Below, in pieces: positions 32,417 to 36,408 of a stretch of DNA of 37,520 nt (position 1 is its first letter; each line of letters starts with the position of its first letter). A program made the position numbers and the translations under genes. The notes under the pieces were generated by a model. The model did no database searches. It saw nothing but the letters and a program-made list of their open reading frames with translations, and was not told where the DNA came from. The stretch comes from a virus (taxonomy: Duplodnaviria; Heunggongvirae; Uroviricota; Caudoviricetes), in IMG/VR virus record IMGVR_UViG_2541047896_000017; one strand, 5' to 3'.

Positions 32417-33010
32417 CTAAATCTCAGCAATCTTTTTTTTACTGTGCTGTTCTATTATCAACTCTGCTTCCGCTTGGTATTCATGAGCTAACTCTCGAAG
32501 AATTCGGGCAAATCGATGAAAGCCTAGAAGTTCCATTGCATCAGACTTAGTGTGATATTGTTGGGCCAACTCCAATTCCGGTTTACCTTCTGGGTCAACA
32601 ATGTAGACACCACGCGAATTTATTATCGCATTCTTATAACCAGTACGCACTTTATCAAGTTCACGTCTATTCAAAAACTCGGCCAGTTCTGGAAGTATCC
32701 AATGCTCGTCATTTGCAGGGCTAAAAATTAATATGCTTCCAATCCTATGATAAGCAAAATCTAAATGGCCTGACTTTTCGCATTCTGTTTGGACAAAATC
32801 AAACCAGTTATTAAACGCATTGACATCAAACTTGCCTTCAGCATCAACACCCGGAATCTTTTTCCAATCATCAAGTAAATAGAGTGAGTTTTTGGCAATA
32901 TTTATTTCACTTTCAGATAGTTCTTTACTTGCTTTTTGAAATTCTGATCGATACGCATATTGAATGACTTCACAAAAAAAACTGGGTTCACTTGCAAGTT
33001 TTTTCTCTAA
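32417..33010 (-). pseudogene. C-terminal fragment (about 197 codons) of the IS5-disrupted large cargo gene
   Basis: Frame open from the IS5 junction to stop at 32417 with no plausible start codon; in frame with the 34206..36408 part once IS5 and one CTAA copy are removed. Confidence 0.75.
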
Positions 33011-34205
33011 GGAAGGTGCGAATAAGCGGGGAAATTCTTCTCGGCTGACTCAGTCATTTCATTTCTTCATGTTTGAGCCGATTTTTTCTCCCGTAAATGC
33101 CTTGAATCAGCCTATTTAGACCGTTTCTTCGCCATTTAAGGCGTTATCCCCAGTTTTTAGTGAGATCTCTCCCACTGACGTATCATTTGGTCCACCCGAA
33201 ACAGGTTGGCCAGGGTGAATAACATCGCCAGTTGGTTATCGTTTTTCAGCAGCCCCTTGTATCTGGCTTTCACGAAGCCGAACTGCCGCTTGATGATGCG
33301 AAACGGGTGCTCTACCTTGGCACGGATGCTGGCTTTCATGTATTCGATGTTGATGGCCGTTTTGTTCTTGCGCGGATGCTGCTTCAAGGTTTTTACCTTG
33401 CCGGGACGCTCGGCGATCAGCCAGTCCACATCCACCTCGGCCAGCTCCTCGCGCTGTGGCGCTCCTTGGTAGCCGGCATCGGCTGAGACAAATTGCTCCT
33501 CTCCATGAAGCAGATTACCCAGCTGATTGAGGTCATGCTCGTTGGCCGCGGTGGTGACTAGGCTGTGGGTCAGGCCACTCTTGGCATCGACACCAATGTG
33601 GGCCTTCATGCCAAAGTGCCACTGATTGCCTTTCTTGGTCTGATGCATCTCCGGATCGCGTTGCTGCTCTTTGTTCTTGGTAGAGCTGGGTGCCTCAATG
33701 ATGGTGGCATCCACCAAAGTGCCTTGGGTCATCATGACGCCTGCTTCGGCCAGCCAGCGATTGATGGTCTTGAACAATTGACGGGCCAGTTGATGCTGCT
33801 CGAGCAGGTGGCGGAAATTCATGATGGTGGTGCGATCCGGCAGGGCGCTATCCAGGGATAATCGGGCAAACAGGCGCATGGAGGCGATTTCGTACAGGGC
33901 ATCTTCCATGGCACCGTCGCTCAGGTTGTACCAATGCTGCATGCAGTGAATACGCAGCATGGTCTCCAGCGGATAGGGCCGTCGGCCATTGCCCGCCTTG
34001 GGATAAAACGGCTCGATGACAGCGGTCATATTCTGCCATGGCAGAATCTGCTCCATGCGGGAGAGGAAAATCTCTTTTCGGGTCTGACGGCGCTTAGTGC
34101 TGAATTCACTATCGGCGAAGGTGAGTTGATGGCTCATGATGTCCCTCTGGGATGCGCTCCGGATGAATATGATGATCTCATATCAGGAACTTGTTCGCAC
34201 CTTCC
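33011..34205 (-). mobile_element. IS5 insertion sequence (1195 bp) with 4-bp CTAA target-site duplication
   Basis: Terminal inverted repeats GGAAGGTGCGAATAAG (33011-33026) and complement of GGAAGGTGCGAACAAG (34190-34205); CTAA at 33007-33010 and 34206-34209. Confidence 0.9.
33157..34137 (-). CDS. insH: IS5 transposase
   Basis: 326 aa beginning [34 protein letters not shown], as recalled for IS5 InsH. Confidence 0.9.
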
Positions 34206-36408
34206 CTAATACTTGAGGATGCAACGAATCATTAGCCCCCCTGTTAATTACAGGTAGGTATGCCCATTCAATCTTTACTAAGTCGTCATCTGAAACAGTG
34301 TTATCATTTTGAATATAATTCACAAGTTCATTAAATGAGTGAATATCAAACCGCTCAATATTTTCTGTGGTTCTAATTGATTGCAATAGAGCAAGCACAA
34401 CCTTACTGCTATCAACTGAATTATCGATATGCAAAATTTTAGATAAACAATCTATTGCCATCAAGGGACGGTCTACTTTAATCAAGCAGTCTATAGCAAA
34501 ATAAATTTCTTCCGTTGAATCACAGCTGTATGCATTAACAAGAGTATTTTTCCAATACTCGAAAGGAAAATCATCAAATGAAGCGTTTAATGCATCCCAT
34601 GTTTCTTTTTTAAACGGTAACAAAAGAAAAAAAGCAATCTTTTCTTGAGCACTCCAGTCATTAATAACTGTCAACACCCATGATTTTCCTTCTCTGTAGT
34701 TTTTAGCCTGTACATAACCAGAAGCAAGAGAATTTTCCTTTTTAATATCACTAACAATAAGTTTTTTCAGTATATCTAAAGGAATTTCTAGATCTTCTGC
34801 GACCAGGCTACTACCAACAAACTCAGGCCTTTCAATAGATAGAGAGAATTCTAAGACTCCATCAATACCATTAATAGCATATATTTCGCATATTGATTGC
34901 CCTCGTTCTTTTGTCAACCTTTCTTCTTGGTCCCGCCAGTTTCCATTTTCATCAAATAGGAAGTAATTGTTTTGTGCAAAAAGTCGCTTGCTATAAAGCA
35001 TAGGATCTTCGGGCTTCAAGACTGTAGAAACATCTTTGATTTTTTCATTTTGTTCTGGTTGCATTGCCCAATAAGCACCTGAGAATCTTTTGTTTTTGTT
35101 ATAAACTTCTAAACATTTTTCCCACACCGCTAACTTCAATTCAGCACTATCTGTTTTTTTAGAAAAATCATACAATAGTTTAATTGCATCATCGAATTTA
35201 AATGGCGCTAAACTACCAATATTTTCAACTAAATCAACAAGTCTTAATGATGATTTACTTGCCAATTCAATTGTTAATTGAGTGTATATTTCAATCTGAG
35301 TACGGCACTCATCACCCGATGGCCTTTTATTAAAACCGTTAGGAATAAAGTTTCTAAAAGTTGGAATATGTGTGCCAGATGTTACTTGCGTGTTGTTGGG
35401 TAGCAACTGAACTAAAACACGCCATGCTGTATCGGGCCACTCCCTTGCCAATGCGTTGAAAGCAGCAATACGTCTATCTATATCAGCTGTAGTATGAGGA
35501 AGCCATGGTAACAATATGTTGATTATCGAGTTAAGTGGCCTGTTAGCCCAATTGCCACCAGGATCATGGCTATCCAGCTCCCCTAATATTACTAAAGAGC
35601 GAGATAAATAGTTAGGCGCCCAAGCTAATCCTTCAATAGCCCATAGCAGTCCTGTCATATAATTCCGACCTGAAATTCCACCGATACCTTCCTGTGCAAA
35701 AAGTGAATCAAATGGCTTGTCTTGGTGAGATGCAGCATTTTCCACTTCGTCGATAAAACAGTCAGGAGCACTTTCCGCAAGCATAACTTGAATATCTTGC
35801 GTACTAGCCCATAATTGCCAGCTAGAAGCCGAAAAAACCTCTTTAACCACACTTGAGGCGCAATATTGCCCTTTATATTTTGAGCAATTAGTAAGTAACT
35901 CTTGCTTTGTTGCAACTAATGCCAACCCTTCGGATAGTCCTTTCCTTATTAATCGGCTGTGTGGTAAAACCTTCCCATAAATTACTGCTGCATAACGCTC
36001 TTCAGGTGCCAGTTCAAATTGTGGGTCGATAGTTTTAAAAACGGATACAACAGTCGTCCGAAACAAATCCAAATGATCATCGAATAATCTTGACGATACC
36101 GTTTGAAATGTTTGTATTCTATCTTTAAAACTCCAAGAACCTCTCTCATGAATCAAAGGACTATCTTGCATCCCTTCAATTATTCTTAATTTTCGAATCC
36201 AACTGTCATATGACTCACCAATAAGGCTTGTAATTATATCAATATCACCATTATTTTTTTCATCCCAGCAACCGACTAAAACAGCAATCGCTAACTCAGT
36301 CGCATAATCAACATTATCACTATTGTATACAATTAAGTTACCAGCAACATTATGGCCTGGTCCGGTATGATTTTGACTAATTGAACTGCAGCTATGAATG
36401 TTATCCAT
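34206..36408 (-). pseudogene. N-terminal part (about 735 codons) of large AT-rich cargo gene, truncated by IS5
   Basis: ORF-track 743 aa ORF whose last 7 codons plus stop come from IS5; start ATG 36408 (RBS gagg) or GTG 36414. Confidence 0.75.

Follow-up and report, generated by a model that had tools for sequence, protein, structure and literature searches.

What did a prophage lose when an insertion sequence (IS) landed in a large cargo gene, and was the loss selected? The question is raised by the IMG/VR virus record IMGVR_UViG_2541047896_000017, a stretch of 37,520 nucleotides (nt) that we refer to as the window, in which a copy of IS5 divides a long minus-strand open reading frame (ORF). 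Our analyses indicate that the locus is probably best explained by a recent IS5 hit in the receptor gene of a two-gene abortive-infection (Abi) module, carried as cargo by a P88-like prophage. Throughout, the large interrupted gene is called the receptor gene and its small upstream neighbor the effector gene, after these proposed roles. The element and the gene that it interrupts are laid out as follows.

32417-33007, minus strand: 3' portion of the receptor gene (codons 735-930 and stop codon)
33007-33010: left copy of the target-site duplication, CTAA (coding strand TTAG, which is codon L734 plus base 1 of E735)
33011-34205, minus strand, same orientation as the disrupted gene: IS5, 1195 bp, intact, with 16-bp terminal inverted repeats
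33011-33026 and 34190-34205: the IS5 terminal inverted repeats, complementary at 15 of 16 positions
33157-34137, minus strand: intact IS5 transposase ORF, 326 amino acids (aa), DDE type
34206-34209: right copy of the target-site duplication, CTAA
34183-36408, minus strand: 5' part of the receptor gene, with native codons 1-734 at 34207-36408, then 7 IS-encoded residues and a stop

The length of the element and its imperfect 16-bp repeats starting GGAAGGTGCGAA are those of the IS5 group; the left repeat, GGAAGGTGCGAATAAG, and the reverse complement of the right one, GGAAGGTGCGAACAAG, differ at a single position. The 4-bp duplication CTAA fits YTAR, the insertion target of IS5 (PMC5009759). The transposase scores 366.8 bits with the NCBIfam model NF033581 (IS5 family transposase; cut-off 140) and also matches Pfam DDE_Tnp_1 (4.5e-35) and DUF772. 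Thousands of E. coli records contain annotated IS5 copies that share 99.7-100% identity with the element. The inverted repeats and flanking CTAA copies lie exactly where the preliminary description of this DNA had placed them.

Deletion of the IS and one CTAA yields a continuous minus-strand ORF of 930 codons from the ATG at 36408, reading ...LHPQVL and then EKKLASEPSFF... across the junction, with the insertion falling after codon 734. The preliminary description had singled out this "cleanly in-frame" split. The continuity holds, but it adds no information, because any clean insertion into an ORF looks so: continuity is automatic for a simple insertion with target duplication. The empty site itself was found in E. 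coli DLI.5a, where TTTTTTCTCTAA is followed by TACTTGAGG with a single CTAA. An uninterrupted gene is present in 7 of 5426 complete E. coli genomes, at 99.6-100% identity, and the comparison with genomes lacking the IS thus bears out an insertion into an intact gene. The restored protein is one residue apart (P17T) from the DLI.5a protein WP_001756445.1, and the product of the upstream gene is identical between the window and DLI.5a. The perfect duplication, the intact IS, the single amino acid change and the identical upstream gene all agree with the original proposal of a recent event; the IS5 insertion is real and evidently recent.

The IS-bearing allele encodes a 741-aa product (WP_021563152.1), comprising the 734 native residues and seven more, GKVRTSS, which the IS encodes up to a stop within it. 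Fusion to the 3' fragment is ruled out by in-frame stops that lie just within the end of the IS. Because no gene follows in the same direction, the next one, gpD, being convergent, polar effects need not be considered; the IS leaves the effector gene unaltered. The lost segment, residues 735-930 (the last 196), holds 20 of the 79 invariant columns of the family, including FFC(744-746) and the NSRG...DP.GKPE block. From the loss of these conserved residues, the receptor is most likely inactivated and the module most likely dead in the strain carrying the IS. The claim of insertional inactivation therefore divides: the anatomy and the empty site establish the insertion, and loss of function is its most likely consequence.

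The preliminary description did not identify the large gene. The nature of its module is indicated first by the small gene just upstream of the receptor.

36414-36734, minus strand: GapS6a/Bab-type effector gene, 106 aa, with a Babybell/HetE-N domain, intact; ends 5 nt before the receptor ATG
36423-36488, minus strand: BASS11-like C-terminal motif of the effector, residues 83-104, HAATVIIQNHSGTGDNIGGNKI
36331-36396, minus strand: BASS11-like N-terminal motif of the receptor, residues 5-26, HSCSSISQNHTGPGHNVAGNLI

By its sequence matches, this gene is a member of the GapS6a/Bab family of Babybell effectors. It scores 136.1 bits with the NCBIfam GapS6a model NF047935 (cut-off 90) over profile positions 1-104 of 104, and 131 bits (1.7e-38) with Pfam HetE-N PF20701 (cut-off 25). 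Residues 1-83 align with the "Babybass" structure in the PDB (9h9v; E = 6e-18), and hydrophobic helix 1 is kept together with its G11: MDFLSSAILSGIVYD aligns with MDFLTSTLLSGILYD of 9h9v. PGAP names the small gene gapS6a in intact relatives and calls the large protein beside it hypothetical. The effector is 43% identical to Vibrio GAPS6a, which with GAPS6b forms a validated anti-phage pair that protects against coliphages (bioRxiv 10.1101/2023.03.28.534373). Its other characterized relative, Bab, belongs with Agp to an Abi system that acts by amyloid signaling, in which a shared motif passes activation from receptor to effector and mutation of Bab G11 abolishes activity; membrane disruption and cell killing upon activation are established for Bab only (bioRxiv 10.1101/2024.11.07.622273).

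The effector tail HAATVIIQNHSGTGDNIGGNKI aligns with receptor residues 5-26, HSCSSISQNHTGPGHNVAGNLI, with a local alignment z-score of 10.7. We searched the last 28 residues of the small protein against its own 930-940-aa partner in six lineages, with 300 shuffles as the reference. In 6/6 lineages the best local match fell at the N-terminus of the partner (residues ~5-26, or 15-41 in Vibrio cyclitrophicus), with z-scores of 6.8-11.6, and none of the 300 shuffles reached the real score. The two copies of the motif also co-vary: enterobacteria combine GGN with AGN or AGD, and Sedimenticola and Psychromonas combine GRD with ARD. The Babybell-solenoid gene pair, with a spacing of 5-14 nt, also occurs in Citrobacter, Sedimenticola, Psychromonas and Pectobacterium, and the Pectobacterium pair sits inside a relaxase/integrase element, not a prophage. 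The pair in the window thus has the arrangement of a BASS-type pair, in which adjacent genes carry the motif at the effector C-terminus and the receptor N-terminus. The formation of cross-beta fibrils and the templating of the partner are established for BASS11 of Bab/Agp only (bioRxiv 10.1101/2024.11.07.622273).

A different coupling appears in V. cyclitrophicus (VTYK01000003.1, L007:4835-5120). Here no Babybell gene precedes the solenoid homologue (940 aa, 45% identical); its place is taken by the gene for a 64-aa protein whose N-terminus is hydrophobic, and the two proteins share a different N/Q/G-rich motif of ~25 residues (QVQKVGNNSSANQFGDNANVTIN vs QSQNVGDNSTALQVGDNAQITLY; z = 11.6). Judged from these sequences, the pair looks like a second, unnamed signaling motif joined to a minimal membrane effector. 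The V. cyclitrophicus solenoid gene adjoins pheT, as the E. coli prophage does.

The receptor resembles no described partner of a Babybell effector that we compared. The 930-aa protein had no match in Pfam (E <= 0.01), NCBIfam (E <= 0.1) or PADLOC, and a profile search of the core family against PDB sequences returned no solved relative; none of 50,697 phage records searched by tblastn contained a copy. With 48 homologues as input, AlphaFold2 gave a model with a mean pLDDT (predicted local distance difference test score) of 87. In it, residues 1-26, which hold the motif, are predicted to be disordered (pLDDT < 50), and the remainder is predicted to form a continuous all-alpha solenoid of helical repeats, with no PIN-like sheet. 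We found no Walker A motif and no match to an NTPase domain, so the protein lacks the NACHT or NB-ARC domain that defines NLR/STAND receptors.

GAPS6b and Agp are TPR-GreA/B-C-PIN proteins. Vibrio GAPS6b was compared through two 133-aa fragments from the supplement of the paper; both match the NCBIfam GapS6b model NF047936 and Pfam PIN-TPR-GreABC, and BLAST of the receptor against the two fragments gave E >= 0.2. We therefore rejected the receptor as a GapS6b/Agp partner, as it matches neither NF047936 nor the Pfam family, shows no BLAST similarity to the fragments and has an all-helical model; this non-homology rests on the two fragments, the NCBIfam model and the fold. The locus is accordingly not GAPS6 proper, its second gene not being GapS6b. 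Our literature search for "TPR-GreAB-C-PIN" and "Babybell" found nothing beyond the Bab/Agp preprint.

Both genes lie in an island between two genes of the phage backbone.

30965-32206, plus strand: gpD (tail/late control D), by Pfam Phage_GPD and PGAP annotation; convergent with the cargo operon
32213-36889: cargo island between gpD and ogr, missing from P88 and Shae_phiSM
36929-37189, plus strand: ogr (late-gene activator), PF04606 Ogr_Delta in annotated identical regions; divergent from the cargo operon

In P88 and Citrobacter phage Shae_phiSM, the equivalent of window position 32212 is joined straight to 36890. Therefore, 32213-36889 is inserted cargo, and the large gene is prophage cargo, as the preliminary description had it. 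Without the IS and one duplication copy the island is 3478 bp, and it holds two minus-strand genes 5 nt apart, the effector and then the receptor. The two cargo genes have a GC content of 36.6% vs 54% for the phage backbone, a difference in keeping with a cargo slot. The window is a complete P2-type prophage of P88-like (Xuanwuvirus) type, and among sequenced phages it is closest to Escherichia phage P88 and other Xuanwuvirus, which are 96-97% identical to it from the sheath gene to gpD (29755-32212).

A pattern scan over one genome per species showed that the receptor belongs to a far wider family. The solenoid core was found in 439 bacterial and archaeal species genomes, including Methanoperedens, Methanosarcinales and Nitrosopumilales bins, and across phyla these relatives share ~38-40% identity with the E. 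coli protein within residues ~36-925. In place of the motif, relatives carry fused N-terminal modules:

53 of 80 loci: a conserved 253-aa domain without a Pfam or PDB match
8 loci: a ~345-aa domain
5 loci: DUF4145
1 locus: Schlafen AlbA_2
protein P0097: SIR2, matching the PADLOC pAgo-associated SIR2 models at 6e-122

Among the fused relatives, the SIR2 module alone was recognized by PADLOC. The ~253-aa domain (L012-L087, e.g. L012:3125-4000) is highly conserved, with the signatures STGGGG.HFE..VQASF...ML.GG..PCLP, DTDD..V and Q.K, and it has no match in Pfam, in PADLOC or, by profile search, among PDB sequences. In several Nitrospirota and Planctomycetota bins (L044, L046, L052 and L071), the 253-aa module and the core are separate ORFs that overlap by 11-14 nt, which are either genuine splits or frameshifts.

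A constant core with exchangeable N-terminal effector-type modules is the usual architecture of defense sensors, and the gammaproteobacterial branch, coupled by its motif, fits this scheme as a further means of linking a killer. The disrupted gene may then belong to a large class of alpha-solenoid immune receptors, as yet unnamed and without an NTPase, that spans bacteria and archaea. Such receptors would be coupled to killers either by fusion (SIR2, Schlafen, DUF4145, the 253-aa domain) or, in the gammaproteobacterial branch, by interchangeable amyloid motifs to separate membrane effectors (Babybell, or the 64-aa transmembrane peptide in V. cyclitrophicus). We regard this broader proposal as about as likely as not.

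These observations suggest how the intact module might work and how it was broken. The effector would combine an N-terminal membrane-targeting helical domain with a C-terminal, BASS11-like amyloid signaling motif of ~20 residues. Upon phage infection, the solenoid receptor would oligomerize, by analogy with Bab/Agp and fungal NWD2/HET-S, and its N-terminal motifs would nucleate a cross-beta template. The template would convert the effector tail and free the hydrophobic helix 1 of the effector into the membrane, and the infected cell would die. In the lineage of the window, IS5 has jumped into a TTAG/CTAA site of the putative receptor gene in the cargo of the P88-like (Xuanwuvirus, P2-type) prophage, truncating the receptor after residue 734 and leaving the effector gene intact.

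The nearest described system is Bab/Agp of E. coli ECOR25 (Ibarlosa et al., bioRxiv 10.1101/2024.11.07.622273; Bab PDB 9h9v). The two share a small Babybell effector (~106-109 aa) with helix 1 and G11, a C-terminal effector motif of the Q-N-H-x-G-x-G-D-N-I-x-G-N type, a large neighboring partner with the matching motif at its start, and a location as prophage or defense-island cargo. However, Agp has a TPR-GreA/B-C-PIN architecture, whereas the partner in the window has an all-alpha model, no GapS6b match and no PIN-type sheet. The same holds for GAPS6 of the Vibrio GMT islands (Mahata et al., bioRxiv 10.1101/2023.03.28.534373): it is likewise a two-gene operon with a GapS6a-family first gene (43%), but the GapS6b fragments match NF047936 and PIN-TPR-GreABC and the large protein in the window matches neither. 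The fungal NWD2/HET-S and bacterial Bell/NLR BASS pairs (Dyrka et al., bioRxiv 10.1101/2020.01.06.895854) have adjacent genes, a motif at the receptor N-terminus and effector C-terminus, and a HeLo/Bell-type membrane effector, as here. Their receptors, unlike the one in the window with its lack of a Walker A motif, are STAND NTPases (NACHT or NB-ARC) with repeat sensors. As an event, the insertion recalls those in cas genes (PMC10359306), where an IS also disrupts a gene of a (putative) immune module, and its YTAR target and 4-bp duplication are typical of IS5 in E. coli generally (PMC5009759). It differs from the cas cases in that the target is the prophage-borne receptor of an amyloid-signaling module and selection for the event is unsupported.

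How well do other explanations account for the locus? The window comes from a draft scaffold, and misassembly is notorious at IS copies; the junctions could thus have been artificial, or the two halves naturally separate genes. The window is the reverse complement of scaffold KE701938.1 of GCA_000460675.1 (0 mismatches over 9338 nt), and a separate Logan short-read assembly (SRR786137) contains the same truncated ORF, with 0 mismatches to the window over 3341 nt. The Logan assembly stops 26 nt into the IS, a break expected of short-read assemblies at a repeat. This independent recovery of the gene/IS junction, together with the perfect 4-bp duplication and complete IS ends, gives no sign of an artefact, and every homologue is a single ORF of ~930 aa, not a gene pair, so that we are dealing with one gene; this explanation is close to refuted already. 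It is also highly improbable that the large gene is unrelated to defense, being instead a toxin-antitoxin-like "addiction module" or a prophage accessory gene to which the Babybell gene is incidentally adjacent. Two members of its UniRef cluster do carry the name "Addiction module", and no PADLOC defense model matches it. Incidental adjacency is at odds with the strict pairing at 5-14 nt across genera and different mobile elements and with the shared, co-varying terminal motif; moreover, relatives are fused to the effector-type domains SIR2, Schlafen and DUF4145, and the effector family is experimentally tied to phage defense. A disrupted receptor of an Abi module is therefore the reading that we prefer, and several points weigh against it. 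The receptor family is without a match in Pfam, NCBIfam and PADLOC, its proposed defense role derives from its neighbors and from the domains fused to its relatives, and amyloid formation by this variant of the motif is argued by analogy with BASS11 of Bab/Agp. Because the N-terminal motif and 79% of the solenoid survive in the truncated product, residual, dominant-negative or altered activity is possible. Finally, one allele cannot separate a neutral from a selected hit.

The preliminary description suggested that the insertion could reflect selection against a costly or toxic product. In its strong form, the intact pair would be autoimmune or costly, perhaps especially during prophage late-gene expression, and IS5-disrupted cells or lysogens would have outgrown the rest. 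The toxicity of Bab/Agp gives the idea plausibility: the pair is unclonable on plasmids and lethal when induced, with both proteins and both motifs required (bioRxiv 10.1101/2024.11.07.622273), and an IS in the receptor would leave no full-length trigger, with the effector alone tolerated. Among the sequences covered (40 of 267 cluster members; ~660 listed contigs), there are also at least three other, independent broken alleles. A 768-aa frameshift allele (P0126) occurs on 7 contigs; its lesion, deduced from the protein sequence, lies in a run of eight identical bases near the IS site:

32974-32981: A8/T8 homopolymer, 10 codons downstream of the IS site, where a frameshift gives the 768-aa allele

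This allele could be real slippage or a homopolymer sequencing error. C-terminal fragments of 353 aa (from residue 579) and 482 aa (from residue 449) occur on 4 and 3 contigs, respectively; these lesions, too, were deduced from protein sequences and may have other causes. Against selection, only ~15 of the ~660 listed contigs (~2%) carry a broken allele, while the main intact sequence is on 563 listed contigs and the gene is intact in 7/7 complete genomes; the IS allele is limited to a single assembly and the read sets behind it. The distribution of target sites also matters. YTAR density is 20.2/kb in the cargo genes vs 4.1/kb in the phage backbone, and that of CTAA/TTAG is 10.9/kb vs 0.7/kb (~15-fold); average E. 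coli coding DNA has 7.0 YTAR/kb, and in mutation-accumulation lines of E. coli no IS is more active than IS5 (PMC5009759). The cargo genes hold 27% of the YTAR sites of the window in 8.6% of its length, and site density alone makes the receptor gene the likeliest IS5 landing place in the prophage. Because IS5 target sites are unusually dense there, a neutral account is sufficient, and the data are best read as a sporadic hit in an AT-rich, target-rich gene. The loss of a system prone to autoimmunity could have brought a fitness gain. Thus selection against a toxic product stands as a plausible suggestion that site density and the low frequency of broken alleles leave unsupported, and we consider positive selection of this insertion unlikely.

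The remainder of the window conforms to the P2 type, with other ORFs that resemble the P2-type late-gene set up to gpD and ogr (not all were scanned).

1301-2251: integrase
2151-2462: C-type repressor
4812-7679: gpA

The prophage adjoins ihfA-pheT both in the source strain and in DLI.5a. A promoter and terminator scan of the locus yielded fewer sites than in shuffles and was not used. gpA is followed by genes of the ParB-like partition family (7756-8715 and 8585-9031) and by an unknown ORF of 196 aa (9095-9685); these lie ahead of ORFs taken as portal and terminase by their position in the P2-type layout. We take this region, 7756-9685, to be the old/tin slot, a classic site of cargo in P2; it may represent another accessory or defense locus. 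The tail genes (tail protein, tape measure, gpE, tube and sheath; 24630-32206) are on the minus strand, opposite to gpD and ogr on the plus strand. In P2, the tail genes, gpD and ogr all run in one direction. The inverted tail-gene order is a trait of Xuanwuvirus rather than a rearrangement in this strain, because P88 and DLI.5a share it.

Just past ogr, beside the host ihfA-pheT, alignment with annotated relatives places a hok/gef-family toxin gene (37380-37520), whose last base is the end of the window. Shae_phiSM, a related Xuanwuvirus, has other cargo downstream of gpD and ogr (L088:6351-7581), annotated as a TagO-like protein and a hypothetical protein, which suggests that a variable slot lies at the gpD/ogr end of the genome. 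In the Shae_phiSM record, several product names are apparently off by one gene.

The insertion itself is routine genome decay, a further instance in which a mobile element silences a (putative) immune gene. More is learned from the gene that it broke: a validated Babybell/BASS11 effector family is here paired with a receptor that is neither TPR-GreAB-C-PIN nor NLR, from a highly conserved family with no name, no solved structure and no PADLOC entry. If the pair defends against phages, amyloid signaling would be a portable connector between unrelated sensors and killers, and the family would be a new sensor with which to ask what is detected. In that case the IS allele and the intact alleles (e.g. 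that of DLI.5a) would be ready-made loss-of-function and wild-type versions of the system. If the broader class of solenoid receptors also holds, amyloid signaling would extend beyond NLR and TGP receptors, and a fused effector domain and a ~20-residue motif would be evolutionarily exchangeable.

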